IMG/VR virus record: IMGVR_UViG_2840054979_000001
Span: 1 to 64,000 of that record
Direction: 5' to 3' (one strand)
Source of the DNA: a virus
Lineage: Duplodnaviria; Caudoviricetes
Length of the DNA: 64,000 bases
This document shows positions 10,190 to 26,511 of the stretch, in pieces. Numbering within the stretch: the stretch's first letter is position 1; each line of letters begins with the position of its first letter. The notes under the pieces were generated by a model. It did no database searches, was not told the origin of the DNA, and worked only from the letters and a program-made list of their open reading frames with translations. Made by a program: the position numbers and the translations under genes.

Positions 10190-10217
10190 TGCCACCCCAA
10201 CAGCGGACGATGAAGTA

Positions 10218-11045: not shown

Positions 11046-11743
11046 AGAAGTCCGACGTCGCCAAGCTGATCGGCATCGTCAAGGGGCTCTGGCCGAACTG
11101 GACCGCAGCGCCGATCACCCGCGAGCAGTGGGACGACACGGTGTCGACGTGGATGCTCATGCTCGAGGACGTCGACGCCGCCTCCGCCGCCGCAGCCGTG
11201 CAGATCCTGTCCGCCGAGGGCCGGGAGTGGCCGCCGCCGGTCGGCCGCATCCGCCGCCGCTCGATCGAAGCTGCCGCCCACGCGGCCGGTACCGCGCCGC
11301 CGACGCCGGATGAGGCGTGGGCCGAGGTTCGCGAAGCGATGCGTGATGACACGACCGACTGGTCGCACCCTGCCGTCAAGGAAGCGGTCGACACGATCGG
11401 CTGGTGGGACCTGCGCCACTCGACGAACGTCGACACGGTGCGGGCCCACTTTGTCAAGTTCTACGCAACCGCCGCTGACCGGGCGTGGGCGCCGATGCTG
11501 ACCCCACCGAACGCCCGAGCCACGCTCGACGCCATCGCCCTCACCGCCGCCGAACAGCGCACCGCGCTCCCCCGCCCAGCCCCAGTGCCGGCAGCCGAGC
11601 TCGCCGACCCGGGCGTCCCGGTCGATGACGGCCTGGCGATCATGCGCCGAGCCCGCGACGAGGCACGCACCCGCGAACGGGAGCCCCGAGCCGGCGACGG
11701 TCTGGTCGGTATCGGCGACGCACTCGGCCGCCTGACCAGCTGA
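11042..11743 (+). CDS. Replicative helicase loader/inhibitor-like protein
   Basis: DVAKLIGIVKGLWPN...TWMLMLEDVD...WPPPVGRIR...DEAWAEV...AVDTIGW..L...RAHFVKFY. Confidence 0.7.
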   Translation: MKKSDVAKLIGIVKGLWPNWTAAPITREQWDDTVSTWMLMLEDVDAASAAAAVQILSAEGREWPPPVGRIRRRSIEAAAHAAGTAPPTPDEAWAEVREAMRDDTTDWSHPAVKEAVDTIGWWDLRHSTNVDTVRAHFVKFYATAADRAWAPMLTPPNARATLDAIALTAAEQRTALPRPAPVPAAELADPGVPVDDGLAIMRRARDEARTREREPRAGDGLVGIGDALGRLTS

Positions 11744-11769
11744 CACGCCCGCGCGTCTACGATCCGCCG

Positions 11770-12474
11770 ATGGCGTTCGGGCGTAAACGGCGGAGGATCG
11801 GTGAACTCACCGTCCTGCTGGAGCGGGCGCAGGGACTTCGCATCAGCCAGGCCGTCGCCCTCGAAGCGATGGCGGACGCGCTCACGAGGCCGGGCCACAT
11901 GACTAAGGCCGCCGCGGCCGAGCAGCTTCGGGCGCTCGCCGGGGCGTGGCGCGCGGTCAGTGACGTGCAGGTCGCCGCCGTTCGGGGTGGGGCGATCCAG
12001 GCCGTCGCCACGACCGGCATCGTCGTGACCCTGCTTGCCGAGACGATCGGCGGAGCCGTCAGCGGTGTCAGTGAAGCCGTGTCCTCGCACGTCGTTGAGG
12101 CGTTTCAGCAAGATGCAGCCCTGCTGCTCACGCTCGACGCCAACATCGCCGGCATCGCAGACGGCATTCTCCTGATGCCCGACGACCCGCCCGACGCCGT
12201 TCAGGATGCAGCCGAGATGGTCGAGTCGATCGGCCGCGCCGCGGCAGTGGAGGTCGGCGACGATCTCGAATCGGAAAGTACGCGTGCCGGCTATCTGTTT
12301 CAGCGGTTCCGGCATCCGATGGGATTCAACGATCCGCACGAGTTGTTCGAGCTCGGCAATGAGCTACTCAGTGTGCTCGGCCCTGGGATGGTTGAGAGAA
12401 CGGATCAGCACCGCTTTCCGCTGGCTGCCGCTCTCGAAGCCCTCGATAGAGCGATGTCACGGGCGACTCGCTGA
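11770..12474 (+). CDS. Hypothetical protein
   Basis: Leaderless ATG 6 nt after TACGAT; helical ORF. Confidence 0.6.
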   Translation: MAFGRKRRRIGELTVLLERAQGLRISQAVALEAMADALTRPGHMTKAAAAEQLRALAGAWRAVSDVQVAAVRGGAIQAVATTGIVVTLLAETIGGAVSGVSEAVSSHVVEAFQQDAALLLTLDANIAGIADGILLMPDDPPDAVQDAAEMVESIGRAAAVEVGDDLESESTRAGYLFQRFRHPMGFNDPHELFELGNELLSVLGPGMVERTDQHRFPLAAALEALDRAMSRATR

Positions 12475-12498
12475 GTATCGCTTCGCCACGCTCGTGAC

Positions 12499-12510
12499 GC
12501 ATTATGATGC
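12499..12510. promoter_or_regulatory. Operator, GCATCATGATGC family (GCATTATGATGC)
   Basis: One mismatch to the palindrome; overlaps the TATGAT -10 of the leaderless ParB-N gene. Confidence 0.65.
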
Positions 12511-12516
12511 ATCCCG

Positions 12517-13074
12517 ATGAGTGGTGATGGTCGTGTGCTGCAGCAGGAGTTCGAGATGGTCGACGTCGGCGCTCTCGAACTGCATCCCCGCAATCCGAAC
12601 CAGGGCGACTTCGGCGCCATCCATGAGTCGGTGGCGACGAACGGGTTTTGGGGTGCCCTGGTCGTGCAGAAGTCGACGAACCGGGTGCTCGTCGGCAACC
12701 ACCGGCTCGCCGTGTCCCGCGAGCTCGGCATCACCGAGGTGCCGGTGCTGTGGGTCGACGTCGACGACGAACAGGCGCTGCGGGTACTCACGGCCGACAA
12801 CCGCACCGCCCGGCTCGGTTCCGACAACATCGAGGTGCTGACCGAGGTGCTGATGAGCCTGGCGTCATCGGACCTCGGCCTGGCGGGCACCGGCTTCGAC
12901 GGTGACGATCTCGACGCCATGTTGAACGACATGGCAGAGAACGAACCGACCGCAGAGCCCGAGCCGAAGGAACCGGTGCTGCAGGTGGTAATCGCGTGCG
13001 AGTCGAAAGAGCACCAGCGCGCCGTGCTCGCCAAGGTGGAGGAACTGGGCTATGAAGCCAAAGCCAAGGGGTGA
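12517..13074 (+). CDS. ParB N-terminal (ParB/Srx) domain protein, DNA-modification-locus type
   Basis: LELHPRNPN...SVATNGFWGALVV...VLVGNHRL...ADNRTA. Confidence 0.9.
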   Translation: MSGDGRVLQQEFEMVDVGALELHPRNPNQGDFGAIHESVATNGFWGALVVQKSTNRVLVGNHRLAVSRELGITEVPVLWVDVDDEQALRVLTADNRTARLGSDNIEVLTEVLMSLASSDLGLAGTGFDGDDLDAMLNDMAENEPTAEPEPKEPVLQVVIACESKEHQRAVLAKVEELGYEAKAKG

Positions 13075-13237
13075 CGCCGCCGCCGGCAAGGCGCAAATCA
13101 TCACCCACGTCGAACCCGACCTGCGTGACGCTGTGCACCGTTGGGCCGAGTCCGAGGACCGCACCGTGTCGGCGCAGGTCCGTAAGACGTTGCGCGACAA
13201 CGTGCCCGTCCGGTTTCTCGACGCACCACCTGGATAA
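13052..13237 (+). CDS. Ribbon-helix-helix (Arc-like) DNA-binding protein
   Basis: AQIITHVEPDLRDAVHRWAESEDRTVSAQVRKTLRD. Confidence 0.7.
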   Translation: MKPKPRGDAAAGKAQIITHVEPDLRDAVHRWAESEDRTVSAQVRKTLRDNVPVRFLDAPPG

Positions 13238-13301
13238 CTGTCGCCGCATCAGCTACACTTACTAGTAGGGACCAGGGAAGGGTCCCCGCCAGAAAGGAAC
13301 C
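13231..13301 (+). promoter_or_regulatory. Promoter plus AGGGAAG-loop hairpin plus SD
   Basis: TGGATA-17-TACACT; GGGACC-AGGGAAG-GGTCCC (13268-13286); GAAAGGAACC. Confidence 0.65.
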
Positions 13302-13306
13302 AGCTG

Positions 13307-14143
13307 ATGCCGACCGCAACCGACATGCGGATCGTCGACCTGCCCGTCGACCAGATCTCACCCGAGTGCAACGACCGCACGAAGTTCGACGAGACCGCGA
13401 TCGTCGCGCTCGCCGAGTCGATCGCCCGCAACGGGCTCGCCCAACCGATCACCGTCCGCCCCCGCCCCGACAGCGACGGCTACTGGCTGGTCGCCGGTGA
13501 ACGCCGCTGGCGGGCCCACCGGCACCTCGGCGCGTCAACGATCAAGGCCATCGTCCGTGACCTCGACGACCGCCGGGCCCAAGACGTCATGCTCGTCGAG
13601 AACATGGCCCGTCAGGATCTGAACCCGATCGAAGAGGCGACCGCGTACCGCAAGCGACTCGACGCCGGACTCGACATCGACGAGCTCGCCAAGATCGCCG
13701 GCGTGTCGGTCGCCCGGATCCGCTGGCGAGTCGGGCTGCTCGAGCTCACCCCAGAAATCCAGAAGCTCGTCGCGTCCGGCGACTTCGGTCCCGGCTACGC
13801 GGGGTCGATGCCCGGTCTCGACCCGCAACGGCAGCAGCTGGCGTTGCGGGCCTGCATGGAGAAGAACCTGACGGTGCAGGGCATGGAACTGCTGTGCGCG
13901 CAGCTGCTCGCCGAGCAGAACCAGGGCAGCATGTTCGACGCCGATTCGTTCATGCAGCTGGACGAGGTGGTCGCCAAGTCGCAGCGCGAGAACGTGAAGC
14001 TGTCGTCGATGGAACTGACCGCGCTCGCCGGCCGGGTGCTCGACGCCGTCCTCGATCACGTGCCGCTTGAGGCGCTGTCCCACGACGCCAAAGCCGACCT
14101 GGACCAGCTGCAGCGGGTCGTCGCCTTCCGGCTCAAGAAGTGA
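13307..14143 (+). CDS. ParB/RepB/Spo0J family protein
   Basis: LAESIARNGLAQPITVR, LVAGERRWRA, VENMARQDLNPIEEA, followed by an HTH. Confidence 0.93.
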   Translation: MPTATDMRIVDLPVDQISPECNDRTKFDETAIVALAESIARNGLAQPITVRPRPDSDGYWLVAGERRWRAHRHLGASTIKAIVRDLDDRRAQDVMLVENMARQDLNPIEEATAYRKRLDAGLDIDELAKIAGVSVARIRWRVGLLELTPEIQKLVASGDFGPGYAGSMPGLDPQRQQLALRACMEKNLTVQGMELLCAQLLAEQNQGSMFDADSFMQLDEVVAKSQRENVKLSSMELTALAGRVLDAVLDHVPLEALSHDAKADLDQLQRVVAFRLKK

Positions 14144-14183
14144 CAGAACTACGATCCGTCGCCGTGAACAGGGGTAGGGACCA

Positions 14184-14483
14184 ATGAACACGCCAACGCC
14201 GCCGCCGCCACCGATGCCGCCGAGACAGCCCGGCTACGCCACACCACCGGCCACCTCAGGCGGCCAGCCGGTGTGCCCGTACTGCGGAGCGCACGGCACG
14301 CTGCGCAGTCAGCAGAAGCAACTCACCACGAAGAAGCGCGTCAAGTTCGGCGTGATGTGGGTGGTGCTCACCGTCTGCACCGGCGGGATCGCATTCCTGA
14401 TCTGGCTGATGATGCCACGGCGCAACGAGGTCATCGGCGTCGACCGATGGACCGAATGCACCGCCTGCAAGTCGACTCTCTGA
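14184..14483 (+). CDS. Zn-ribbon membrane protein
   Basis: CPYCG...hydrophobic hairpin...CTAC; Pro-rich N-terminus. Confidence 0.7.
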   Translation: MNTPTPPPPPMPPRQPGYATPPATSGGQPVCPYCGAHGTLRSQQKQLTTKKRVKFGVMWVVLTVCTGGIAFLIWLMMPRRNEVIGVDRWTECTACKSTL

Positions 14484-14528
14484 CGACCGCGACCGGCCCG
14501 CTCGGTCGACGCGCCGCCACGGCTGATC

Positions 14529-15674
14529 TCAAGAAGTGAGCACGGCCGTCACCTGGTCGACGACGTAGTCGACGTCGTCGTTCGACATGGCGGCGTGGCA
14601 TGGGATCGCCAGGTGGCGGGCGCTGTACTCGGTGGCGCCGGGGATGGCGTCGCCGTAGAAGTCGCGGAAGTGGCTGAACTCGTGAAGCGGGATGAAGTAC
14701 ACCGACGATCCGACCCCGGCCGCGGCCAGCTGCTCGAGGTACTGGTTGCGGCGGGCCGGGTCGACGAACAGCGGGTACACGTACCGTGACCATGCCCGAC
14801 CGGGCAGCCGTGGCAGCAGGTCGACGCCGTCGAGTTGGCCCAACGCGACGTCGTAGCGGCCGCTGATCCAGCAGCGTCGGGACTGGGCGGCCCACGCGCG
14901 CCGTAGTTGAGCGACGCCGATCGCGGCGTGAACGTCGGACATGTTCGACTTCAAGCCGGGTCGGATGATGTCGTACCGCCACGTCGGGCCCCCGGACGCG
15001 TGGCGGGTCCACACGTCGCGGGACATGCCGTGCAGCCGCCAGCGGACAGCTTCGTCGAGCAGATCGTCAGGCCCCGTCAGCGCGCCGCCCTCGGCAGTCG
15101 TCAACGTCTTGGTGGCTTGGAAGCTGAACGCCGTCAGCCGGCGTACACCGATCGGGCCGGAAGGGTCGCCGATCGTGCGGCCGTCGACCGAGGCGGGCAG
15201 GGCGTGGGCGGCGTCCTCGACGATCGCGACGTCACGGCCGGCGCAGAGAGCGTCGATCGCGGTCATGTCGGCCGGCATCCCGTTGAGGTGCACCGGGATG
15301 ACCGCCCGAACGTCGTTGCCGTTCATCATCCGTTCGAGCAGGTCGACGTCGATCAGCCCGGTGGCCGGGTCGACGTCGCAGAGCCATGGCCGGCCGCCGG
15401 CTCGTTCGATGGCGTGCATGGTGCCGGGGAAGCCCATCGCCGAGGTGAGGACGATGCCGCCGTCGACGTCCACGGAGCGCAGGGCGAGCTCGATCGCGTC
15501 GGTGCACGACGAGAACAGTTCGACTCGGGGCGCTTCGACGAACCTGGCGAGGTCGGCGGCGAACTCGGCGCACTTCGGGCCGGTGGTGATCCACCCGGAG
15601 CGCAGCACGCTGGTGACCTCGGTGATTTCGTCGTCGGTGATCTGAGGCTGGGACAGGCCGACTCGTCGCATCAT
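14529..15674 (-). CDS. DegT/DnrJ/EryC1/StrS PLP-dependent sugar aminotransferase
   Basis: LRSGWITTGP, IPVHLNG, IVEDAAHA, FSFQATKTLTTAEGG (PLP lysine). Confidence 0.95.
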   Translation of the reverse strand: MMRRVGLSQPQITDDEITEVTSVLRSGWITTGPKCAEFAADLARFVEAPRVELFSSCTDAIELALRSVDVDGGIVLTSAMGFPGTMHAIERAGGRPWLCDVDPATGLIDVDLLERMMNGNDVRAVIPVHLNGMPADMTAIDALCAGRDVAIVEDAAHALPASVDGRTIGDPSGPIGVRRLTAFSFQATKTLTTAEGGALTGPDDLLDEAVRWRLHGMSRDVWTRHASGGPTWRYDIIRPGLKSNMSDVHAAIGVAQLRRAWAAQSRRCWISGRYDVALGQLDGVDLLPRLPGRAWSRYVYPLFVDPARRNQYLEQLAAAGVGSSVYFIPLHEFSHFRDFYGDAIPGATEYSARHLAIPCHAAMSNDDVDYVVDQVTAVLTS

Positions 15675-15694
15675 GCTCGCACGATACTGCTAAC

Positions 15695-15706
15695 GCATGA
15701 TGATGC
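15695..15706. promoter_or_regulatory. Operator, GCATCATGATGC family (GCATGATGATGC), between divergent leaderless promoters
   Basis: Lies between minus-strand -10 TATCGT (DegT gene) and plus-strand -10 TAGGGT at 15720 (methyltransferase gene). Confidence 0.65.
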
Positions 15707-15733
15707 ACGACGAGTCGGCTAGGGTGAGCGGCC

Positions 15734-16393
15734 GTGGATGACTACTGGGCGGAGCACTTCGGCGCCTACCACGGTGGCGACGACCGGCTCGACGCATCGT
15801 CGGACTCGTTCTGGTGGGGCTACGCCACGACGGTGCTCACCGAGGCCGGCCCGCTCGCCGGCCGCACCGTCCTCGACGCCGGGTTCGGCTCCGGTGCCAT
15901 GCTGCACCTCGCCGCCGCGGCCGGCGCAACCTGCACCGGCATCGACCTCGAGTCGGCAGTCGCCGCCTTCGACGACAGCCACCCGTCGATCGACGTCGAG
16001 ATCGGCGACCTTCGCGACACGGCCGGCTGGACCGTCGACCGGGCCGACGTCGTCTGGTGCGTCGAGTCGATCCACTTCGTCGACGACCCCGTCGAAACCG
16101 CCTACTCCCTGTGGGCCCGGGTCGCCGCCGGTGGCCGGCTCGTCGTCACGTTCGCCGACTCTCGCTCGCCGTTGATCGAAAAGGTGCGCCTCGACCACGG
16201 AGGCCGCTACCACGGTGTCCACCCCGGAGCCCTCGACGCGCTCGGCCGCAACCTGCCCGCCTGCGCCCGCTTCGAGATCCGCGACCTCCGCATCGACGCC
16301 GACCAGATCGTCCGCCCGTTCCGCATCGGGCCGCACGACCCGACCGCGCGGCCGCCGCACCGGCTGCTGTTCACCGCACTGAAAGGAGCCTGA
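15734..16393 (+). CDS. Class I SAM-dependent methyltransferase
   Basis: VLDAGFGSG, GIDL, DVVWCVESIHFV, GGRLVVT. Confidence 0.9.
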   Translation: MDDYWAEHFGAYHGGDDRLDASSDSFWWGYATTVLTEAGPLAGRTVLDAGFGSGAMLHLAAAAGATCTGIDLESAVAAFDDSHPSIDVEIGDLRDTAGWTVDRADVVWCVESIHFVDDPVETAYSLWARVAAGGRLVVTFADSRSPLIEKVRLDHGGRYHGVHPGALDALGRNLPACARFEIRDLRIDADQIVRPFRIGPHDPTARPPHRLLFTALKGA

Positions 16394-16395
16394 CG

Positions 16396-17034
16396 ATGGC
16401 AGGCCAAGGCCCGATGAAGGTCGTCCAGGTGAAAGTCGGCGACCTCGTCCCCGACCCGAACAACGCACGCCGCGGGTCGGTGTCCGAGATCATGAAGTCG
16501 CTCGAAGAGTTCGGCCAGCACCGGCCGATCGTGGCCCGCCGCGACTCGAAGGTCGTAGTCATCGGCAACCACATGCTCGAAGCCGCCAAGGCGCTCGGCT
16601 GGGACAAGATCGCCGTCACTTACGTCGACGACGACGACGAGACCGCGATCCGCCGTGGCCTTGCCGACAACCTGGCGTCGGACCGCTCGAAGTGGGATGA
16701 CGCCCAGCTGGCCTCACTGCTGTCCGAGCTCGACGACGCCGCATCGGTGCCCGGTGTAACCGACAAGATGCTCGACAACCTGCTCGCCGAAGTGACGACC
16801 GACGAGCCGACCGAACCGCTCCTTCCGATCACCCCGCGCCCGGCTGAGGGCTACAGCTACGTCGTCATCATGTCCCGCAACGACATCGACAAGGTGTGGC
16901 TGGAGACGGTGATGGGGATCCGCAAGGAACGGTCGTGGAAGTCGAAGAAGTCCGGCGTGTCCCGAGTGGTGACCGTCGACCAGTTCAAGCAGGCGTTGAA
17001 CACCGCGATCGCACGCGGCGAGCCGTTCCACTGA
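16396..17034 (+). CDS. ParB N-terminal domain protein, DNA-modification-locus type
   Basis: LVPDPNNARR...SLEEFGQHRPIV...VVIGNHMLEAAK...LADN...WD; C-terminal YSYVVIM domain; SD GAAAGGAG. Confidence 0.9.
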   Translation: MAGQGPMKVVQVKVGDLVPDPNNARRGSVSEIMKSLEEFGQHRPIVARRDSKVVVIGNHMLEAAKALGWDKIAVTYVDDDDETAIRRGLADNLASDRSKWDDAQLASLLSELDDAASVPGVTDKMLDNLLAEVTTDEPTEPLLPITPRPAEGYSYVVIMSRNDIDKVWLETVMGIRKERSWKSKKSGVSRVVTVDQFKQALNTAIARGEPFH

Positions 17035-17045
17035 CAGGAGCCCCG

Positions 17046-17759
17046 ATGAACTTCGTCCCGCACGACCGACACCAGCTGGCCGCCTACTGGCAGAGGTACT
17101 TCGCCGACACGTTCCGCCACGACTGGACGATCGAGACCGCTCCCCCACTGATGGGTCAGCATTTCGGGTTGGCGATCGCCGCGGCGGGCCCGGCCGTGTT
17201 CGACGGCCGGGTCCTCGACGCCGCGTGCGGACATGGCCGCCTCGGCCTCGCCTGCGCCGGCCTTGGCGCCCAGGTGCTCGCCGTCGACGGCAACCCCAGT
17301 CTGATGAGTCAGCTGCACGACCGCCACGTCCAGCGCGGCTCGAGCGAGCGTTACGTCGATGGGATCGCGTTCCAGGCGGTCGACCTGCATGGCCGCTGGG
17401 AGGTCGGCGACCCGTTCGACGTCGTGTTCGTCATGGAAGCCCTGCAGTGCTTGCCGCTGTCGGCGACACTCGGCGAAGCGTGGTCGCACGTCGCCGAGGG
17501 CGGCCGGCTCGTCTTCACGGTGCCGTGGGCGGCCAACCCGATCATCGAGGCCGCGCACCGAGAGCACCGTGGCATGTTCCAAGTGACCGGCCGCCACGAG
17601 CTCGTCTCCGCGATCCGGCAACGCTGCGACGGCCACAGCCTCTGGCACGCCCAAGCCCTGCACCTCGCCGACGACCAGCGCTACGGCGCCTACGCCCTCG
17701 ACCGGCTCGCCGACTTCGACGACCCGCCCTACCGGGTGCTCGTCACCGTCACCAGATGA
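17046..17759 (+). CDS. Class I SAM-dependent methyltransferase (paralog of 15734)
   Basis: VLDAACGHG, LAVD, FDVVFVMEALQ, GGRLVFT; shares a C-terminal L..DQ...PPyR.L.T pattern with 15734. Confidence 0.9.
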   Translation: MNFVPHDRHQLAAYWQRYFADTFRHDWTIETAPPLMGQHFGLAIAAAGPAVFDGRVLDAACGHGRLGLACAGLGAQVLAVDGNPSLMSQLHDRHVQRGSSERYVDGIAFQAVDLHGRWEVGDPFDVVFVMEALQCLPLSATLGEAWSHVAEGGRLVFTVPWAANPIIEAAHREHRGMFQVTGRHELVSAIRQRCDGHSLWHAQALHLADDQRYGAYALDRLADFDDPPYRVLVTVTR

Positions 17760-18721
17760 TCGCCGACTGGCCGGACTTCACCCGCCGGTACGGGCCGTAC
17801 TGGCATCAGGACTGGGCGACGATGTGGACCGACCGCGACGCCACCGTCGTCGGCGACATCGCCACCGCAGCGATGCCCGCGCTGCTCCACCCCGTCCCGG
17901 ACCAGCCCGGCCGGATCCATGTCTCGCCGCCGTCGGGTGAGGTCGGCGTCTTCTCCCACAGCCCGATCGGCATCGAAGCGCTGTGCCGCTGGCTCGCCGC
18001 CGCCGGTGTCGTGTCGGCGTTCCTGCCGTTCGACCCCCGCAGCCCGGTAGCGCCGACGGTGCCACGGCTCGATGACGCCTGGGACGCCACCGTGCGGCCG
18101 GTGCCTCCGTCGATCGTCGTCGACCTCGAACGTTGGGACCGCGCGGCAATGTCGGCGAACCATCGTCGCAACCTCGCCGCTGCCGAGCGTGCGGGTGTGG
18201 CGTGGCAGCACATCACCGACGACGGGCCCCACGACGACGTCGCCAGGTTCGTCGACCTCTACCGGCAGACGGCGCGCCGCAACCGGTTCGCCGCCCGCCA
18301 CGACCTGACCGCCGACCAGGTGCTGCGCCTGCTCGCCGCCGACAGCCTGCAACCGCGGCTGTACGGGGCGTGGCACGACGGCCGCCTCGTCGCCGGCGTC
18401 ACGACGCTGCTCGTCGGCGAGATCGCCACGTTCCACTGGTCCGCGACCGCCGACGACTACGCCCGTTCGCCGCTCGCCCCGTCGAAGGCTGCCCTGTACT
18501 GGGCGCTCGAGGACGCCAAGCTGCGCGGTGCCCGATTCATGCTGCTCGGCGGCGGGATGACCGCCGGTGACGACCTCGAACAGTTCAAGCGACGCTTCGG
18601 CGCGCACCTGCCGGTCGTGCCGCAGTTCGCGCTCGAGATCGTGTTCGACCGCAAAGCCCACCGTGCCGCGTGCGCGGCGCGGCCCGTGAAGGAAGGCTGG
18701 TTCCCGTCGTGGCAGTACTGA
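17756..18721 (+). CDS. FemAB/GNAT-family acyl- or aminoacyl-transferase
   Basis: NHRRNLAAAERAGV, FVDLYRQT, FHWSAT, LLGGG...LEQFKRRF. Confidence 0.85.
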   Translation: MIADWPDFTRRYGPYWHQDWATMWTDRDATVVGDIATAAMPALLHPVPDQPGRIHVSPPSGEVGVFSHSPIGIEALCRWLAAAGVVSAFLPFDPRSPVAPTVPRLDDAWDATVRPVPPSIVVDLERWDRAAMSANHRRNLAAAERAGVAWQHITDDGPHDDVARFVDLYRQTARRNRFAARHDLTADQVLRLLAADSLQPRLYGAWHDGRLVAGVTTLLVGEIATFHWSATADDYARSPLAPSKAALYWALEDAKLRGARFMLLGGGMTAGDDLEQFKRRFGAHLPVVPQFALEIVFDRKAHRAACAARPVKEGWFPSWQY

Positions 18722-19503
18722 CGCCGCTACTCCCGCTCGACGACTCGCCCGAAGAGCCGTTCACGATCGTCGTGCCGTCCAAGGGACGACCGAACAAGCT
18801 GCTCGTCAAGAAGATGCTGCCCGCCGGGTCGTTCAAGGTGCTCGTCGAACCGGGCGAGGCAGGCGCCTACCGGGAGGCGAACCCGGACTGCGAGATCGTC
18901 GAGCACCCGAAGGAGGCGTGGCCGTACTCCCGCAAGGTGCAGTGGGCGTATGAGACGTTCGGGTCGATCGTGTCGATCGACGACGACATGGAACGCTGCT
19001 GGCACTACGAGCACGGCCTGGGCGACCCCGAATGCACGCTGTCGAAGGAAGACACCGTCCGGTGGATCTCCCGAACGATGTGGGAGGCCCGCCAGGCCGG
19101 CGCGCACCTCGTCGGGTTCTTCGCCTCCGACATCCGCAACTATGACGCGCAGAACCCGTTCAAGCTGGTCGGCTGGATGCCCGCCTCCGCGATGGGGATC
19201 CTGTCGGGCTCGAAGCTGCACATGCATTCCGACATCGTCTGTTCGGCCGACTACTGGATTTGCCTGCTGAACATGTACGAGCACCGGTACATGTGGGTCG
19301 ACAACCGGATCGTCCCGGGCTTCGTCGAGGGCAAGACGTTCAAGACGGAGGGTGGCATTTCGTCGTCGCGGACGATCGAAGCGGAAAAGCATGATTTCGA
19401 ACTGCTGGAACGTTACTTCGGCAACGTCGTCCGCAAGAAGCAGGGGACGGTGCGGGCGAAGGTGAAGCACATCTGGCAGAAGCAGATCTATCCGCCGTTC
19501 TAG
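18709..19503 (+). CDS. GREB1/TAGT-like (TET-associated) GT-A glycosyltransferase
   Basis: IVVPSKGRP, IVSIDDD, ADYWICL, KTEGG.S..RT...E...L...F; GTG start after GAAGGAAGG (ORF track starts at 18670). Confidence 0.78.
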   Translation: MAVLTPLLPLDDSPEEPFTIVVPSKGRPNKLLVKKMLPAGSFKVLVEPGEAGAYREANPDCEIVEHPKEAWPYSRKVQWAYETFGSIVSIDDDMERCWHYEHGLGDPECTLSKEDTVRWISRTMWEARQAGAHLVGFFASDIRNYDAQNPFKLVGWMPASAMGILSGSKLHMHSDIVCSADYWICLLNMYEHRYMWVDNRIVPGFVEGKTFKTEGGISSSRTIEAEKHDFELLERYFGNVVRKKQGTVRAKVKHIWQKQIYPPF

Positions 19504-19548
19504 CCGGCTACTGTCGCACCGTCAGCTACACTTAAGGAGTAGGGACCA
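19504..19548 (+). promoter_or_regulatory. Promoter nearly identical to that of the 13307 ParB gene
   Basis: ACTGTCGC-N4-TCAGCTACACTTA-N3/4-GTAGGGACCA shared between 13237 and 19510. Confidence 0.6.
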
Positions 19549-19575
19549 ATCGCCTACGGGATAGAAAGGCTGACT

Positions 19576-20247
19576 GTGGGATTCAACTTCATGGGACAAA
19601 AGACGCTGCGGGGCTTCGCGCTCGGCGAAGTCGTGTCGGCGCTGCAGAAGGCGGTGAGACGTGGCGATGTAGCCCAGTCAGTGGCGTGGTGTGCCGAGCT
19701 CGACCAGTCCGGGTTCGGGAACTACGCGTGGAAGCGGCTGCTGATCATCATGTCCGAAGACATCGGCCCGGCGTGGCCCGAGGGACCGGCTGTCATCGCC
19801 GCGTTGCGGCGCAGCTGGGACGAGTACATTGAGGGCGCCAAGGGCCGCAAGGGCGGGTCGGAGCGGATCTTCATCACGCACGCCGCGATCCTGCTGGCGA
19901 GGGCGCCGAAGAGTCGGATCGTCGATGAAGCGATTTGGGCGACCTACGGGCGGCCCGAGCCGATGTTCGGGGAGATCCCCGACGAGGCGCTCGGCGTGTT
20001 CACGCAGCGCGGCCGGTCGATGGGTCGCAAGCTCGGCACCCCCGAAGGCGACCGGTTCTGGTACGACGTGGAATCGGTGCTCGTCAACGAGGTCGAGTTC
20101 GACAACCCGTTCCACGACCGGTATCTGATCGGCGAGCAGGCGGCATTCGACCAACAGGGCGCGTCATCGGGCGGCTCGAGGACCGAGGCCGCAGGCTCGG
20201 CGCGTGCGGCAGCGAAGAGTGACGACGCTCAGCTGTTCGACGCGTAG
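19576..20247 (+). CDS. Stand-alone MgsA/RarA C-terminal-like domain protein
   Basis: EVVSALQKAVRRGD...WKRLLIIMSEDIGPA...ILLARAPKSR...IPDEAL; no Walker A/B. Confidence 0.75.
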   Translation: MGFNFMGQKTLRGFALGEVVSALQKAVRRGDVAQSVAWCAELDQSGFGNYAWKRLLIIMSEDIGPAWPEGPAVIAALRRSWDEYIEGAKGRKGGSERIFITHAAILLARAPKSRIVDEAIWATYGRPEPMFGEIPDEALGVFTQRGRSMGRKLGTPEGDRFWYDVESVLVNEVEFDNPFHDRYLIGEQAAFDQQGASSGGSRTEAAGSARAAAKSDDAQLFDA

Positions 20248-21230
20248 GCGGCCGAGGTGGCGCCCGCGAGGATCCGTTGGATCTCGCGGGCGCGGCCGGC
20301 CTGCGACACCGCGGGCACGCGTACGTGGGTGATCGACGGGTTCGGGCCCGGCTCGGCGGTCTCGTTCGGGCCGACCAGGAGCTCGGAGAGACGCTCGCCG
20401 GGTCGTAGCCCGGTGATGGCGATGTCGATGCCGCCGCCGGCCTCGGCGATCAGCAGGGTGGCGACGTCGTGGATCTTGACGGGGTCGCCCATGTCGAGGA
20501 TGCAGGTGTCGCCAGAACGGCCGATGCCGCCCGCGGTGAGGACGAGAGCGACGGCCTCCGACAGCGTCATGAAGTAGCGGTCGACGTCGGGGTGGGTGAC
20601 GGTGACGGGGCCGCCGTGGGCGATCTGGCGGCGGAACACCTCGGTGATCGAGCCGCCCGAGCCGAGCACGTTGCCGAACCGCGTGGACAGCCAGCGGCCC
20701 TGCTGGCCGAGAGCGGCAGCTGCGACGATGCGTTCGGTGAGCCGCTTGGTGCGGCCCATGACGCCGATCGGGTCGGCGGCCTTGTCGGTCGAGATGTTGA
20801 CGAACGTGTCGACGCCGACGCGTCGGGAGGCTTCGACGACGTTGATCGTGCCGTGCACGTTCGTCTTGATCGCCTCGATCGGGTGCGCTTCTCCGAGCAC
20901 GACGTCTTTCATCGCGGCGGCGTGAAACACGACGTCGGGCCGGATCGCGGCGAACAGCTGGTCGAGACGGCCCGGGTCGCGGATGTCGGAGAGGACGAGT
21001 TCGGGGCGGACGAGGTTGCAGGCCGGGTCGAGCCGGTAGAGGGTGCGGCAGAGGTGCTCGTCGTCGCGGTCAAGCATGAACGGCAGCCGGCCGGTGCGTT
21101 CGGCGATCTGGACGCACAGTTCGCCGCCGATCGAGCCGCCGGCGCCGGTGACGAGGATGCGCTTTCCGTTGAGCCATCCGGTGTCGATCGGAGAGGCATC
21201 CCGGTGTCGTCCCAACTCGTCGCAACGCAT
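20229..21230 (-). CDS. NDP-sugar 4,6-dehydratase (CapD/PglF-like, Polysacc_synt_2)
   Basis: ILVTGAGGSIGGEL, VFHAAAMK, NISTDKAADP..VMG.TK, RFGNVLGS.GS, GLRPGE.L.E. Confidence 0.95.
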   Translation of the reverse strand: MRCDELGRHRDASPIDTGWLNGKRILVTGAGGSIGGELCVQIAERTGRLPFMLDRDDEHLCRTLYRLDPACNLVRPELVLSDIRDPGRLDQLFAAIRPDVVFHAAAMKDVVLGEAHPIEAIKTNVHGTINVVEASRRVGVDTFVNISTDKAADPIGVMGRTKRLTERIVAAAALGQQGRWLSTRFGNVLGSGGSITEVFRRQIAHGGPVTVTHPDVDRYFMTLSEAVALVLTAGGIGRSGDTCILDMGDPVKIHDVATLLIAEAGGGIDIAITGLRPGERLSELLVGPNETAEPGPNPSITHVRVPAVSQAGRAREIQRILAGATSAAYASNS

Positions 21231-21233
21231 GAC

Positions 21234-21245
21234 GCATCATGATAC
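21234..21245. promoter_or_regulatory. Operator, GCATCATGATGC family (GCATCATGATAC), between divergent genes
   Basis: Overlaps the minus-strand -10 TATCAT of the dehydratase gene; upstream of plus-strand -10 TATGCT (21258) of the PIG-L-WbqC-terS-terL operon. Confidence 0.65.
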
Positions 21246-21269
21246 TTGTTGCACATCTATGCTGGGGGT

Positions 21270-21920
21270 GTGGAACTCCCCGACCGGATCCTGGTAGTCG
21301 CGCCACACGCCGACGATGAAGTGATCGGCTGCGGCGGTCTGCTGCACCGGGCGGCCCGCGACGGCGCTGAGACGACCGTGGTCGTGGTCGCCACCGACGA
21401 CGAGGAACGCACCGTCGAGCTCAAAGAGGCCTGTCGGGTGCTTGGCGTCGCCAACGTCGAGGTGCTGTTCGGCCCGATGCCGTTCATCGACGACCTCGAC
21501 GACAGCCGCATCGTCTCCGCGATCGACGACGCGCTCGCCCGCCACGCTCCACGGCTGGTGCTCGTCCCGTCGCAGGCCGGCTACCACCAAGAGCACCGAC
21601 GGGTCGCCGGTCTCGCCGTCTCAGCGACCCGGCCGGGCGGCGGCCGCACGTTTGGCCACGCGCCGCAGTCGGTCTGGTACTACGAGGCGCCCGCCGACGT
21701 GTCGTCGCCGACCGGAGCCTGGTCGCCGACCTTGTACGTCACGCTCGACGACGTTGATGTCGCCGCGAAGTGCGACGCGATGCTCGCCCACGCCTCCCAG
21801 GTGCGGCCGTACCCGTCGGAACGGTCCACGGAGGCGCTCCGGTCGCTGGCCGTGCTGCGTGGCTGCCAAGTCGGCGCCGCCTTCGCCGAGGCGTACGCCC
21901 CGCGGCGCCAGGTGTTCTGA
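21270..21920 (+). CDS. PIG-L/LmbE-family deacetylase
   Basis: VVAPHADDEVIGCGG, R..E...A, HQEH, HASQ, AEAY. Confidence 0.93.
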   Translation: MELPDRILVVAPHADDEVIGCGGLLHRAARDGAETTVVVVATDDEERTVELKEACRVLGVANVEVLFGPMPFIDDLDDSRIVSAIDDALARHAPRLVLVPSQAGYHQEHRRVAGLAVSATRPGGGRTFGHAPQSVWYYEAPADVSSPTGAWSPTLYVTLDDVDVAAKCDAMLAHASQVRPYPSERSTEALRSLAVLRGCQVGAAFAEAYAPRRQVF

Positions 21921-22597
21921 TGCGCCTCGCAGCTCACCAGCCGCTGTTCTGGCCGCCGATGTACCTGATGCAGCGGTGGCTGCACGTCGACACGCTGGTG
22001 TGGCTCGGCTCGGTGCAATTCACCCGCAAGTCCCGCGACGAGCACGGCCGCAACCGGCCGACCGGCCAGAACCGCATCGTGCTCGGCGACGCAGCCGGCA
22101 ACGACGTCGACGTGACCGTCCCGGTCGGGGCGTCACGCCAGCCGATCGACGACACGCCGCTCGGCGACTGGGCCGACTCGTTCATCTCGACGGTTTGCCA
22201 CCTGTATCCCGAGACGCCCGAACGCGACGTCGTCTGCCATGCGGCCGCCGAGCTCGAAGGCGAACCGCTCGGCAGCGTGAACCGGGCGACATGGTCGCTG
22301 ACGATCGGCCTGCTCGACGTCAAGGCGCCTCACGTCGTCGACGACACCAGCCTGCCGCCGGTCGACGACCGGGTCGACCGGCTCGTCACGTACTGCCGTC
22401 AGCTGGGCGCGACCACCTATGTCGCAGGCAAGCCCGCCATCAACGCCTATCTGGACGCCAACGCGTTCGCCGCTGCCGGCGTCACTCTCACCCCCCAGGA
22501 TTGGACGCCTCCGCACGGCGTTCAGGCGGGCCGGTCAGTGCTCGACTCGATCCTGCGCCGCGGCGTCGACCGCACACGGAAGGCGTTGGGATGGTGA
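21920..22597 (+). CDS. WbqC-like protein
   Basis: AAHQPLFWP, VQF, QNRI, TVPV, RLVTYC..LGATTYV.G....YLD, SVLD. Confidence 0.85.
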   Translation: MRLAAHQPLFWPPMYLMQRWLHVDTLVWLGSVQFTRKSRDEHGRNRPTGQNRIVLGDAAGNDVDVTVPVGASRQPIDDTPLGDWADSFISTVCHLYPETPERDVVCHAAAELEGEPLGSVNRATWSLTIGLLDVKAPHVVDDTSLPPVDDRVDRLVTYCRQLGATTYVAGKPAINAYLDANAFAAAGVTLTPQDWTPPHGVQAGRSVLDSILRRGVDRTRKALGW

Positions 22598-23301
22598 CCA
22601 CCAAACGGCTCCGTCGCAAGTCGCCCGTCGTCGCCAACCCGGCACCCGTCGGCACCCGGGTCGTCACCACGCCGCAGGGCAAGCGCGGCCGCCCGGCGCT
22701 GATCCTCGAAGGCTGGAACGAATCGAGCGGCGGCTGGTCGGAAGGGTCGCCGGCGCACCGGGTGATCACCGCAGTGCGCACCGGCGCGTTCTTGAACGCG
22801 GCGGCCGAGTACGCCCGCCTGAACAAGTCGACAGTGACGAACTGGCTGGCACGAGGCCGCGAGCACCGCCCCGACGTCGACTACGACCGCACCGACATCG
22901 ACGTCGAGCACCGGCCGTACGTCGACTTCCTCGAAGCGGTCCGCAACGCCGATGGCAGCTACGAGGTCGAACTCACCGGCCTCACGTTGAAGGCCGCGCG
23001 CGAGGACCCGAAGTTCGCGTTGCAGGTGCTGTCGCGTCGCTACCCGCACTGGCGCGAGTCGTCCAAGCTTGAGCTCGCCTCCGGGCCCGCCGAGGAAGAG
23101 ACCGCCGATCCGCTCGAGCAGATGGCCGAGCACCCGGCGATGATCGCCCAGCTGGCCAAGCTGTCCCACGACCTCGAAGACCTGAGCGTCGACCCCGAGC
23201 TCGTCGCCGGCAGCGACGAGACCCGCCGCCCCTCGGTGGGCGGTCCGACCGGTGACGTCCCCGACAGCTACGCCGACACCGTCGGCGGTGGTGATGAGTG
23301 A
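22591..23301 (+). CDS. terS: Terminase small subunit (putative)
   Basis: GRP...ITAVRTGAFLNAAAEYARLNKSTVTNWL.RG HTH, F.EAV..A, LSRRYP.W; immediately upstream of terL. Confidence 0.75.
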   Translation: MVTTKRLRRKSPVVANPAPVGTRVVTTPQGKRGRPALILEGWNESSGGWSEGSPAHRVITAVRTGAFLNAAAEYARLNKSTVTNWLARGREHRPDVDYDRTDIDVEHRPYVDFLEAVRNADGSYEVELTGLTLKAAREDPKFALQVLSRRYPHWRESSKLELASGPAEEETADPLEQMAEHPAMIAQLAKLSHDLEDLSVDPELVAGSDETRRPSVGGPTGDVPDSYADTVGGGDE

Positions 23302-24863
23302 CCGCCGCCGTCCTCGACCGAACTAGCCAGCGGATCGCCAAGCGGGCCTGGCTCGCCACGCCAGACACGTTCGGCCGGCGGCTGTCGCACGGCACGCTCG
23401 TCGCGCCGTCGCATCTGCGGCTGCTGTCGTGGCTGCTGTACCTGTCGTCGATCGGCTACGTCAGGCGGCTGACCATCGCGATGCCGCCCGGCCACGCCAA
23501 GTCGACGGCGACGTCGCGTTGGTTTCCGGGCTGGGACCTCGAACTGCGGCCCAAGCACAAGATCATCCTGGCGTCGTACGAATCGACGCTCGCGGTCGAG
23601 CACGGCAAGGCCGTCCGCGAGATGCTGATGGAGAACGCCGACAAGCTGCACGTCCGGTTGAAGGCCGACTCCCAGGCCGCCGACCGGTGGGTGACGATGG
23701 CCGGCGGCGGTCTGCGCACCGCCGGCGCCGGCGGTTCGATCACCGGCCGCCGCGCCGACATCTTCATCGTCGACGACCCGTTCAAGGGGTTCGACGACTC
23801 GCATTCGCCGACGCAGCGCGGCGCGGTGTGGAACTGGTATCGGTCCGTCGCCCGCACCCGTCTGCTGCCGGGCGGCTCGATCATCATCGTGCAGACCCGC
23901 TGGCATCCCGAAGACCTGATCGGCATGGTGTCCGAACAGCCGAACTGGGTGCATCTGCGGCTGCCGGCGATCGCCGAAGAGGACGAGTCGATCGAGACGG
24001 TGGTCGGCGCCGAGTTCGTCGCCAAGTGCGCCCGCGACGGCGTCCCGCTGCCCGCCTGGCATCGGGCAGAAGGCGAACCGTTGTGGCCGTGGCTGATCGA
24101 ACCGTCCGACGTCCTGGCCGGCGTCCCGTGGTATTCGGCCGACGAGATGGCCGAGATCCGCGACGAGGTCGGCGAGTACGTCTGGCAGACCCTGTACCAG
24201 CAGAACCCGACCGTCATCGACGGCGACATGTTCAAGCGCGACAACTGGGTGCGTGTCGACGCCGCGCCGGCTGGCTTGCAGGTCGTGCGCCGCTGGGACA
24301 TGGCCGCCACCGAAGGCGGCGGCGACGCGACTGCCGGCGTGTTGATGGGCCGCGCGAAGAACGGCCGCGTGTACATCTTGGACGTCAAGCACGAGCGCTA
24401 CGGGCCGTCGGGCGTGGAGCGGCTGATCGCCAACACCGCCGAAGAGGACGCCGAGAAGTACGGCCGCAAGATGCCGATCCTGATCGAGCAGGAAGGCGGC
24501 TCGGCCGGCAAGAACGTCGCCGAGCACTACGCCGCGACGGTGCTGCCCGGGTTCAACGTCCGCTTCGAAGGGTCGACCGGCGACAAGACGGTCCGCGCGT
24601 TGCCGTTGGCCGCCCAGGTCGAATCCGGCAACGTGTATCTGGTGCGCCGCGAGGGAGACCGCGGCCCGGAAACACCGGGCTGGTGGTCGAAGCTGATCGA
24701 CGAGGCCGCCGCGTTCCCGAACGGCGCACACGACGACATCGTCGACGCGGCGTCGCTCGCCTACATGGATCTGCTCCGCCTCGCCAAGACCCGCAAGAAG
24801 GCGTCGACCGCTCGGGCGACCGGGTCGATCACAGCGCAGCCGATGCGCGCCGGCATCCGATAA
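23298..24863 (+). CDS. terL: Terminase large subunit
   Basis: MPPGHAKST (Walker A), ITGRRADIFIVDDP (Walker B), QTRWHPEDL, YQQNP, RRWDMA, FPNGAHDDIVDA nuclease motif. Confidence 0.96.
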   Translation: MTAAVLDRTSQRIAKRAWLATPDTFGRRLSHGTLVAPSHLRLLSWLLYLSSIGYVRRLTIAMPPGHAKSTATSRWFPGWDLELRPKHKIILASYESTLAVEHGKAVREMLMENADKLHVRLKADSQAADRWVTMAGGGLRTAGAGGSITGRRADIFIVDDPFKGFDDSHSPTQRGAVWNWYRSVARTRLLPGGSIIIVQTRWHPEDLIGMVSEQPNWVHLRLPAIAEEDESIETVVGAEFVAKCARDGVPLPAWHRAEGEPLWPWLIEPSDVLAGVPWYSADEMAEIRDEVGEYVWQTLYQQNPTVIDGDMFKRDNWVRVDAAPAGLQVVRRWDMAATEGGGDATAGVLMGRAKNGRVYILDVKHERYGPSGVERLIANTAEEDAEKYGRKMPILIEQEGGSAGKNVAEHYAATVLPGFNVRFEGSTGDKTVRALPLAAQVESGNVYLVRREGDRGPETPGWWSKLIDEAAAFPNGAHDDIVDAASLAYMDLLRLAKTRKKASTARATGSITAQPMRAGIR

Positions 24864-24879
24864 TTCTTCGCCGCCCCTC

Positions 24880-24908
24880 TTGCCTTCTGTAGCCGCTTCG
24901 ACTACAGT
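24880..24908 (+). promoter_or_regulatory. SigA-type promoter with overlapping inverted repeat (P1)
   Basis: TTGCCT-17-TACAGT; CTGTAG...CTACAG. Confidence 0.75.
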
Positions 24909-24929
24909 AGAGGGAGTCAACAAAAACAC

Positions 24930-24969
24930 CCCGTCGGGAAGGGAAGCCCGACGGGACCGAAAGGAACCC
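24930..24969 (+). repeat. AAGGGAAG-loop hairpin plus SD element
   Basis: CCCGTCGGG-AAGGGAAG-CCCGACGGG followed by GAAAGGAACCC. Confidence 0.85.
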
Positions 24970-24970
24970 C

Positions 24971-26478: not shown

Positions 26479-26482
26479 TCTC

Positions 26483-26511
26483 TTGCTTACTGTAGCCGTA
26501 TGGACTACAGT
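26483..26511 (+). promoter_or_regulatory. SigA-type promoter with inverted repeat (P2), leaderless gene
   Basis: TTGCTT-ACTGTAGCCGTATGGAC-TACAGT; GTG start 7 nt downstream. Confidence 0.75.

Follow-up and report, generated by a model that had tools for sequence, protein, structure and literature searches.

A ParB-N, TAGT glycosyltransferase and RarA-C gene trio beside the terminase genes of a temperate phage: a candidate DNA glyco-hypermodification module

The stretch analysed here, referred to throughout as the window, comprises positions 1 to 64,000 (64,000 nucleotides) of the IMG/VR virus record IMGVR_UViG_2840054979_000001. Between positions 12517 and 24863 it carries 15 genes, which include three ParB-N proteins, a TAGT-family glycosyltransferase, a stand-alone protein corresponding to the C-terminal domain of RarA/MgsA (RarA-C-like protein), a group of genes related to the synthesis and tailoring of an amino sugar, and the small and large terminase subunit genes (terS and terL). 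Across related loci, the constant core of this system is composed of a ParB-N protein devoid of a helix-turn-helix (HTH) domain, the TAGT enzyme and the RarA-C-like protein. We read the locus, with about an even chance of being correct in our judgement, as a packaging-proximal DNA glyco-hypermodification module of a ~99-kb temperate phage that acts on the phage's own DNA; the acceptor atom is left unspecified because no enzyme forming a hydroxymethyl-pyrimidine was found. A first-pass annotation of the region had arrived at a similar idea, and the analyses below confirm what it observed and partly support how it interpreted it.

Distribution and nature of the conserved trio

A TAGT-seeded scan of IMG/VR yielded 30 viral loci with GC contents of 31-71%, in which the window proteins were searched by tblastn. 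A RarA-C-like gene is located within ~7 kb of the TAGT gene in 29 of these loci, and in many of them a ParB-N gene of the type found at 16396 (ParB-N 3) lies directly upstream of the TAGT gene, the two genes often overlapping. An independent search seeded with the RarA-C-like protein retrieved 330 viral stretches, of which 80 were kept; TAGT was detected in 67 and ParB-N in 63 of them, and 11 of the 13 loci without TAGT are no longer than 11.2 kb. After removal of duplicate contigs, by which 109 viral loci were reduced to 92, 79 non-redundant loci contain both the TAGT and the RarA-C-like genes, and 72 of these 79 also contain ParB-N 3, so that all three genes are present. No gene family beyond the trio is common to more than 25 of the 79 loci, and most related phages have the trio without any sugar-nucleotide genes.

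Nineteen further loci were identified in bacterial genomes, mostly in prophages of Cytophagales, including 17 with ParB-N, 12 with a RarA-C-like gene, 11 with terL and 11 with an N6 DNA methyltransferase gene. All of those with enough flanking sequence are prophage-like, and their genes follow the order X2, ParB-N, TAGT, X1, N6 DNA methyltransferase, MgsA_C-like, terS and terL. Families X1 and X2 of these Cytophagales prophages were considered as a hidden oxygenase and rejected, as they lack Pfam matches, seem on visual inspection to be helical or coiled-coil, and are without homologues in the prophage of the window. In none of the viral or bacterial loci examined is the trio part of a host surface-glycan locus. 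The view that a ParB and terminase context marks DNA-modification loci, on which the first-pass annotation had relied, is in keeping with the neighborhoods of the relatives, which reside in phage or prophage DNA beside genes for ParB-N, DNA methyltransferases, terS and terL. It also agrees with published phage DNA-glycosylation clusters, in which GT-A-like glycosyltransferases are found beside ParB, terminase, clamp-type proteins, methyltransferases, GNATs and sugar epimerases (PMC13229309, bioRxiv 2023.12.21.572611, PMC8256090).

We also considered whether the RarA-C-like protein might be a mere packaging gene carried along by synteny. Its co-occurrence with TAGT across loci of 31-71% GC speaks against this. 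Pure synteny is further disfavored by the variety of terminases in these loci, the terL gene of the window having matches in only one of the 30 TAGT-seeded loci and two of the 80 seeded with RarA-C and a Terminase_3-type enzyme being encoded in one locus, and by Stenotrophomonas phage DLP5, in which the RarA-C-like gene is situated beside sugar genes (a PIG-L gene and nucleoside diphosphate (NDP)-sugar genes), with no TAGT detectable in the protein checked.

The glycosyltransferase is a genuine TAGT-family GT-A enzyme and not an ordinary GT2. It matches PF20691 (TAGT) with 32.1-32.4 bits against a cut-off of 27.5 over profile positions 2-192 of 205, and the same family is matched by 102 of the 104 rows of a homologue alignment built from the query and 103 of its best 150 homologues. 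Because the Pfam score is low (32 bits), we regard the enzyme as a member of a distant clade of the family. It also matches phrog_842 (beta-glucosyl-HMC-alpha-glucosyltransferase, E 4.7e-10), and the three residues D91-D92-D93, an acidic DxD-type motif, are invariant or nearly so in the alignment. An AlphaFold (AF2) model derived from the 104-row alignment (pLDDT 93.1, pTM 0.89) has a GT-A fold and is matched by TAGT-annotated viral models in BFVD at TMq 0.66-0.76, among them TMq 0.71 for the model of a Klebsiella phage beta-glucosyl-HMC-alpha-glucosyltransferase. A Foldseek search of the PDB returned generic GT-A enzymes only (TMq 0.41-0.49), with no solved TAGT structure apparent. The beta-glucosyl-HMC-alpha-glucosyltransferase of phages T2 and T6 shares with the window enzyme the Pfam family, the PHROG and a GT-A fold with a DDD motif. 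The choice between TAGT and GT2, which the first-pass annotation had singled out for checking, is therefore settled in favor of TAGT by the Pfam cut-off, the PHROG and the viral TAGT models. The family itself was reportedly defined by Iyer et al. in 2013.

With regard to its distribution, an exhaustive HMMER search found 424 representative clusters of TAGT homologues at E <= 0.001, and a word-based protein search found only one other cluster (56% identity). A profile of the TAGT clade matched only one of 401 genomes of the same phylum, namely that containing the window. No match to the TAGT protein was found by tblastn among 50,697 phage records, and a family member at middle distance (P0010) matched only two Clostridium phage records.

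Both constant partners of TAGT are from DNA-associated families. Among the three ParB-N proteins, the ParB_N plus HTH_ParB architecture is present only in that at 13307-14143, homologues of which lie beside the trio in eight of 80 loci; no HTH was matched in the other two by Pfam or PHROGs. ParB-N 1 is a paralogue of ParB-N 3 and matches the alignment profile of the latter at 8.4e-40. This type of ParB-N also matches the N-terminus of a phage 'DNA methyltransferase' family (phrog_498, E 1e-24 to 1e-26), and ParB-type proteins have been reported to activate phage DNA thymine dioxygenases (PMC13229309).

The RarA-C-like protein is strongly conserved, its alignment columns averaging 47% identity and a large number of charged residues being invariant, and its profile matches C-terminal fragments of RarA/MgsA in the PDB with E-values of 8e-14 to 2e-10. 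Its structural model (pLDDT 82) aligns with RarA C-terminal structures at Z-scores of 15.0-16.0 (rmsd 1.4-2.2 over 104-114 residues, 28-32% identity), the collar domains of clamp loaders being next best (Z ~8). Only the C-terminal part of RarA (residues ~250-371) is represented in the protein, which has no AAA+ ATPase module. A separate AAA+ gene is found directly upstream of the RarA-C-like gene in eight of the 79 related loci (e.g., L078:9258-10004) and is absent from the locus of the window; RarA appears to be split into two genes in some phages. In the bacterial genome that contains the window, the host's own RarA is encoded at C4:149890-151521, and a second match to the RarA-C profile was seen at C35:7918-9039 (E 7.5e-23), where the open frame is 373 aa long and TAGT is absent from the vicinity.

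The trio recurs, with its gene order retained, in cultured phages of Microbacterium cluster EC (RobsFeet, Quhwah and others), whose terL proteins are among the better matches to that of the prophage. In RobsFeet, the row consists of genes for a ParB-like protein (gp92), a glycosyltransferase (gp93), a UDP-glucose dehydrogenase (gp94) and an 'AAA-ATPase' (gp95). Alignment of gp93 with the homologue alignment of the window enzyme by hhalign (98.9% probability, E 1e-17) places it in the same TAGT clade, and gp92 is 31% identical to ParB-N 3 over 178 residues. The row occupies the right-hand end of the circularly permuted genome, ~1.4 kb (four small open reading frames (ORFs)) upstream of the terS gene at the left end; in phages of this cluster, as in the prophage, terL and the portal gene are separated by many ORFs (PMC7302621). 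They differ from the phage studied here in being lytic, in their genome size (53-54 kb) and in their accessory gene, a UDP-glucose dehydrogenase rather than PseB/PseC, PIG-L and WbqC. The available text of the cluster EC paper notes the glycosyltransferases and gives them no role (PMC7302621).

Layout of the locus and its prophage setting

Genes were picked by third-position GC, as is suitable for high-GC DNA, and were then scanned against Pfam, PHROGs and NCBIfam (Table 1). All of the genes listed by the first-pass annotation were recovered by ORF, third-position GC, Pfam and PHROGs at or near the places given for them, and one gene absent from its list, the 99-aa ORF, was added; this ORF has no match in Pfam or NCBIfam. 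An unbroken chain of overlapping genes comprises only PIG-L, WbqC, terS and terL, in which PIG-L and WbqC overlap by 1 nt and the overlaps of WbqC with terS and of terS with terL, both noted by that annotation, measure 7 and 4 nt. A second coupled block extends from methyltransferase 1 to TAGT, with overlaps of 4 nt (methyltransferase 2 and GNAT) and 13 nt (GNAT and TAGT). The antisense dehydratase gene overlaps the end of the RarA-C-like gene by 19 nt and separates the block running from methyltransferase 1 to the RarA-C-like gene from the chain of PIG-L, WbqC, terS and terL. The description of the whole set as wired into the terminase operon thus holds strictly for PIG-L and WbqC, and not for the antisense DegT and dehydratase genes or for the block from methyltransferase 1 to the RarA-C-like gene. 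A simple scan of positions 11500-26500 yielded no promoter-like sites and three terminator-like sites against 5.1 expected.

Table 1. Genes of the locus at 12517-24863 and two further genes of the window considered in the text
Feature	Positions	Strand	Evidence
ParB-N protein 1, no HTH, 185 aa	12517-13074	+	Pfam ParB_N 19.3 bits (below cut-off); phrog_723 'ParB-like' E 8.7e-35
Full ParB-like protein, ParB_N + HTH_ParB, 278 aa	13307-14143	+	Pfam 74.6 and 58.8 bits
Small ORF, 99 aa, two CxxC pairs and one hydrophobic helix (zinc-ribbon/membrane, by eye)	14184-14483	+	Third-position GC 0.83
DegT/PseC-like sugar 4-aminotransferase, 381 aa	14529-15674	-	Pfam DegT 280.9 bits
Class-I S-adenosylmethionine (SAM) methyltransferase 1, 219 aa	15734-16393	+	Methyltransf_11/23/25
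ParB-N protein 3, no HTH, 212 aa	16396-17034	+	Pfam 23 bits; phrog_620 E 6.9e-32
Class-I SAM methyltransferase 2, 237 aa	17046-17759	+	Methyltransf_25/12/11/31
GNAT/FemAB-like acyl- or aminoacyl-transferase, 321 aa	17756-18721	+	Acetyltransf_6 40.7 bits; FemAB 19.4 bits (below cut-off)
TAGT-family GT-A glycosyltransferase, 264 aa, GTG start behind GAAGGAAGG	18709-19503	+	PF20691
Stand-alone RarA/MgsA C-terminal-domain protein, 223 aa	19576-20247	+	MgsA_C 25.7 bits (cut-off 27)
PseB/CapD-like short UDP-N-acetylhexosamine (UDP-HexNAc) 4,6-dehydratase, 333 aa	20229-21230	-	Polysacc_synt_2 288 bits
PIG-L family de-N-acetylase, 224 aa	21246-21920	+	PF02585 68 bits
WbqC-like protein, 225 aa	21920-22597	+	PF08889 60 bits
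terS, 236 aa	22591-23301	+	phrog_4102 E 1.6e-13; no Pfam match
terL, 521 aa	23298-24863	+	Terminase_6N + Terminase_6C
C5 cytosine DNA methyltransferase, 659 aa	35620-37599	+	PF00145 71 bits, two stretches, long insert
2-oxoglutarate (2OG)-Fe(II)-oxygenase-like protein, 220 aa	60333-60995	+	phrog_1843; no Pfam match; directly upstream of portal gene

The window (68% GC) corresponds to C23:129264-193263 of a 6.2-Mb genome with 70% GC and covers the left 64 kb of a ~98.9-kb prophage inserted at a tRNA-Lys gene. A 51-bp exact direct repeat is present at C23:129061-129111 (attL, 200 bp to the left of window position 1) and at C23:227923-227973 (attR), and the latter copy overlaps the 3' end of tRNA-Lys(ctt); genes for tRNA-Trp and tRNA-His adjoin attR. 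By eye, the start of the window contains a tyrosine-integrase-like ORF, an XRE-like repressor and an excisionase-like ORF. The 12.3-kb region had no megablast match among the 50,697 phage records, and the identity of terL to phage terminases (1937 records matched) does not exceed 39%.

Just upstream of the ParB genes, positions 8436-11045 (+) encode a DHH/DHHA1 (RecJ-like) protein and a PD-(D/E)XK/Cas4-like nuclease. The portal gene (61454-63412) is 36.6 kb from terL, and the interval between them contains genes for a DnaN beta-clamp (24971-26161), an SNF2 helicase (28998-31940), the C5 methyltransferase, an AAA ATPase, DUF4326 and DUF1643, as well as an RtcB-like ORF at 56644-57834 (by eye). 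The catalytic motif of the C5 methyltransferase reads SCV by eye, the usual form being PCQ. A 94-nt tRNA-Arg(gcg) reported by ARAGORN at 28034-28127 (-) is of odd length and overlaps a plus-strand ORF, and may be spurious.

Sugar and tailoring genes

The best NCBIfam models for the dehydratase and the DegT aminotransferase are PseB (159.1 bits, equivalog cut-off 407.75) and PseC (246.1 bits, equivalog cut-off 423.5), respectively. Judging from these family assignments, the two enzymes probably make a UDP-4-amino-4,6-dideoxy-HexNAc, the stereochemistry of which we leave unnamed; PseB and PseC are enzymes of the inverting, altro series. The bacillosamine/Qui4N label given by the first-pass annotation is not sustained, since the best models are PseB and PseC and both scores fall far below the equivalog cut-offs. 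The pair resembles PseB-PseC and PglF-PglE in combining a short Polysacc_synt_2 dehydratase with a DegT aminotransferase, but differs from them in its scores, in that none of the 15 genes matches the nonulosonate synthase or CMP-transferase families, and in that the two genes are non-adjacent and both antisense. PseB/PseC-like genes are nearly unique to the prophage of the window among trio loci: no DegT homologue was detected in any of the related loci tested, and the only dehydratase homologue in 80 related loci is a weak match of 25% identity.

The dehydratase is 54% identical to a host paralogue on C72. At the host locus in question (C72:118236-135239), this paralogue is accompanied by another PseB-like gene (34%) and one resembling DegT (29%); the locus probably serves the host's surface glycans and may have been the source of the phage dehydratase. 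A mosaic origin of the region is conceivable on this basis, in which the antisense dehydratase and aminotransferase genes, and perhaps other sugar genes, would be host-derived morons serving lysogenic conversion or receptor masking, and the trio would act separately with a common host sugar nucleotide. Such an origin agrees with the opposite orientation of the two genes relative to their neighbors, their near-absence from related TAGT loci, the relationship to C72, the higher GC content of the accessory genes (69-72% vs 63-67% in the trio) and the fact that the trio of most related phages stands without sugar-nucleotide genes. Nevertheless, we consider it quite unlikely. As the first-pass annotation had stated, no flippase, polymerase or priming-transferase family is matched by any of the 15 genes in Pfam, nor is a membrane glycosyltransferase found among them. 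Moreover, the sugar genes in question are surrounded by late and packaging genes at a distance of ~14-21 kb from the integrase end. PIG-L and WbqC are again found next to the trio in unrelated phages and, in the window, are translationally coupled to terS, and other trio loci have NDP-sugar enzymes of their own (an epimerase/dehydratase in five loci and the UDP-glucose dehydrogenase in RobsFeet).

The tailoring genes show a wider distribution than the PseB/PseC-like pair. Homologues of PIG-L are located beside the trio in L007, L017, L020, L025, L029, L043 and L059, and those of WbqC adjoin PIG-L in L029/L058 and L059 and also occur in L064; in several unrelated phages the two genes recur beside the trio, adjoining each other and terS. 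In the window, WbqC is translationally coupled to both PIG-L and terS. The best NCBIfam model for PIG-L is BshB1 (51 bits), with both BshB1 and MshB below their cut-offs. In mycothiol and bacillithiol synthesis, a glycosyltransferase, a PIG-L deacetylase, a ligase and a GNAT act in this order. The locus is similar to these pathways in logic only, having a GlcNAc-type glycosyltransferase, a PIG-L deacetylase, a possible amide-forming enzyme and a GNAT, whereas its glycosyltransferase is a TAGT (GT-A) enzyme and not of the MshA/BshA type, a Cys ligase is absent and the genes lie in a phage packaging context.

Methyltransferase 1 and the GNAT both have homologues in L004/L057 (36% and 33% identity, respectively). 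The methyltransferases are class-I enzymes of small-molecule types; the weak best NCBIfam match of methyltransferase 2 is a daptide-type methyltransferase (41 bits, cut-off 175), and this likeness to an amine-methylating enzyme of ribosomally synthesized and post-translationally modified peptides is a lead only. Families recurring beside the trio in related loci comprise PIG-L, WbqC, NDP-sugar epimerase/dehydratase, Amidoligase_2, GATase, ATP-grasp and a second TAGT. In L018 (6367-12266), L024 and L026, GATase_6, Amidoligase_2 and NDP-sugar epimerase/dehydratase genes are inserted between the RarA-C-like gene and TAGT, an arrangement reminiscent of the amidotransferase genes described next to ParB-dependent thymine dioxygenases. 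Such a constant core, combined with amide-forming and sugar-tailoring enzymes that are exchanged between loci, is consistent with a modification pathway undergoing diversification and is typical of hypermodification clusters.

Proposed mechanism, acceptor and alternatives

If the locus is a DNA glyco-hypermodification module as we propose, modification would be post-replicative and linked to packaging, carried out by the core trio as expanded by inserted sugar and tailoring genes. Host UDP-GlcNAc would be converted into UDP-4-amino-4,6-dideoxy-HexNAc, whose amine may then be methylated and/or acylated. TAGT would move this sugar onto DNA, and its ParB-N and RarA-C-like partners might recruit it to replicating DNA or to DNA awaiting packaging. 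PIG-L would then strip the 2-N-acetyl group from the attached sugar, and the freed amine could be re-acylated by WbqC and/or the GNAT. The deacetylation step is placed after transfer because characterized PIG-L enzymes de-N-acetylate GlcNAc glycosides and not UDP-GlcNAc. The product would be a cationic, decorated amino sugar on DNA that blocks restriction and possibly aids packaging.

The nature of the acceptor is the main difficulty for this proposal. Known phage DNA glycosylation needs 5-hydroxymethylcytosine (5hmC) or 5-hydroxymethyluracil (5hmU), or 5-hydroxy-dC, made by a TET/JBP dioxygenase or a ThyA-like hydroxymethylase, and the very name of the TAGT family implies an association with TET/JBP. 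A number of observations weigh against the proposed module. Searches for Tet_JBP (PF12851), made without a positive control, gave no match in the genome containing the window, in the 30 TAGT-seeded viral records (including 11 with a completeness of 90% or more) or in 50 further records (of 72; 15 at least 90% complete); none was found across the 401 same-phylum genomes either, so that the control is also missing there, and no match was seen among the window and related-locus proteins scanned directly. The only match to PF00303 (ThyA-like) in the genome is the host copy on C9, outside the prophage, and none of the 26 related viral records with a completeness of 90% or more contains the family; the control of this search was recovered in 10 of 14 genomes. 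The C5 methyltransferase occurs in only one of 30 related viral records and is not co-conserved with the trio, and the oxygenase-like protein at 60333-60995 was found in none of the 30 TAGT-bearing viral records. The TAGT family is not confined to DNA acceptors. The link between the sugar genes and TAGT is weak as well: the idea that the dehydratase and aminotransferase feed TAGT, advanced by the first-pass annotation, was inference only, and since the two genes are antisense insertions missing from nearly all related loci, with a host paralogue, they may not feed it. In addition, we found no DNA-modification result for any trio-bearing phage in the literature searched.

The hydroxymethyl-pyrimidine acceptor assumed in the first-pass annotation is thus not supported, neither TET/JBP (in the uncontrolled search) nor a ThyA-like hydroxymethylase having been found in the prophage or its complete relatives. 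RobsFeet likewise has no annotated dioxygenase, thymidylate synthase or DNA polymerase. This distinguishes the locus from the T-even system, in which a ThyA-like hydroxymethylase supplies hmC ahead of replication and an alpha-glucosyltransferase adds the first glucose, and in which the PF20691 member of T2 and T6 extends this glucose, that is, glucosylates glucosyl-hmC in DNA (PMC13216743). In the present phage, which is temperate, no hydroxymethylase was found, and the TAGT match is of only 32 bits.

A classical route might still operate if a divergent, hidden 5-methylpyrimidine dioxygenase or hydroxylase made 5hmC or 5hmU for TAGT, the candidates being the oxygenase-like protein at 60333-60995 and the C5 methyltransferase at 35620-37599. 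A gene for C5 DNA methylation is indeed present in the prophage, the Atlas model of the oxygenase-like protein resembles 2OG-Fe(II) oxygenases at TM-scores of 0.51-0.57, the PF12851 searches lacked a positive control, and many phage dioxygenases escape Pfam TET/JBP annotation, thousands of contigs having been found with phage-specific dioxygenase profiles (PMC13229309, section 12). We nonetheless judge this route very unlikely, considering that the oxygenase-like gene is 40 kb from TAGT, that its structural neighbors are PhyH and 2OG-Fe_Oxy_2/5 rather than TET/JBP and fall under the bar of the tool, that neither candidate accompanies TAGT in more than one of the 30 related records, and that no family beyond the trio exceeds 25 of the 79 loci, the most frequent neighbor families scanned having no Pfam oxygenase match. 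Either the acceptor needs no precursor made by the phage, or the acceptor is not DNA.

The second of these options would mean that TAGT glycosylates a protein (of the virion, or a DNA-bound packaging or replication protein), with the amino-sugar genes supplying the donor. A missing hydroxymethyl-pyrimidine enzyme poses no obstacle for a protein acceptor, and the module adjoins the late genes terS and terL. There is also precedent in GREB1, a TAGT-family member that O-GlcNAcylates the protein ER-alpha (PMC7968844), and virion glycosylation in actinophages is a subject of published discussion, two glycosyltransferases having been taken in one genome note to suggest that the capsid is glycosylated (PMC11256854). 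On the other hand, the module is not among capsid or tail genes and is far from the portal gene, its constant neighbors are ParB-N, the RarA-C domain and DNA methyltransferases instead of structural proteins, and the nearest characterized phage member of the family acts on DNA (PMC13216743). A protein target is unlikely in our view.

The first option can be put in a bolder form, namely that the trio is a self-sufficient DNA glycosylation machine requiring no hydroxymethyl-pyrimidine precursor. TAGT would then act directly on canonical or methylated DNA, for example on an exocyclic amine or the backbone, with ParB-N and the clamp-loader-like RarA-C protein engaging the DNA, and in the present phage it would transfer a custom methylated and acylated diamino-dideoxy sugar. 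We consider this form doubtful and put it forward tentatively.

The proposed DNA modification module has its closest published counterparts in clusters of methyltransferase, 5mYOX (TET) and glycosyltransferase genes and in those with ParB-dependent thymine dioxygenases (Burke 2021; Pyle 2023/2024; O'Toole 2026), with which it shares a post-replicative logic that suits a temperate lifestyle. Unlike in these clusters, searches of the prophage and of 80 related records, made with no positive control, did not reveal the defining dioxygenase, ParB-N adjoins the glycosyltransferase itself, and there is a constant RarA-C-domain partner, which is unmentioned in the published descriptions compared, as far as their available text goes. 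The sugars reported for 5mYOX clusters are hexose, N-acetylhexosamine and heptose from the host pool (bioRxiv 2023.12.21.572611), in contrast to the dedicated pathway of 4-amino-4,6-dideoxy-HexNAc type predicted here. The features distinguishing the locus from both published clusters and solitary TAGTs are therefore the missing precursor enzyme, the RarA-C partner and the combined PseB/PseC, PIG-L and WbqC chemistry.

If DNA is indeed the target, the locus would represent the first case in which a phage hypermodifies DNA by way of its own 4-amino-4,6-dideoxy-HexNAc pathway, combined with de-N-acetylation, re-acylation and methylation. Such a hypermodification would go far beyond glucosylation or arabinosylation in complexity, and it would be present in a temperate actinophage. 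It would bear on the evasion of restriction and CRISPR, on targeting by type IV restriction and on sequencing artefacts, and might provide new enzymes for DNA labelling. Should the precursor-free form be true, it would imply a new DNA-modification chemistry in dozens of temperate phages as well as in cultured Microbacterium phages. The occurrence of the trio in the latter makes the question directly testable at the bench. 'Solitary' TAGT homologues have been reported in 288 of 753 phage genomes (PMC13216743), and a trio without a recognizable dioxygenase or hydroxymethylase offers a testable entry to the role of these enzymes.

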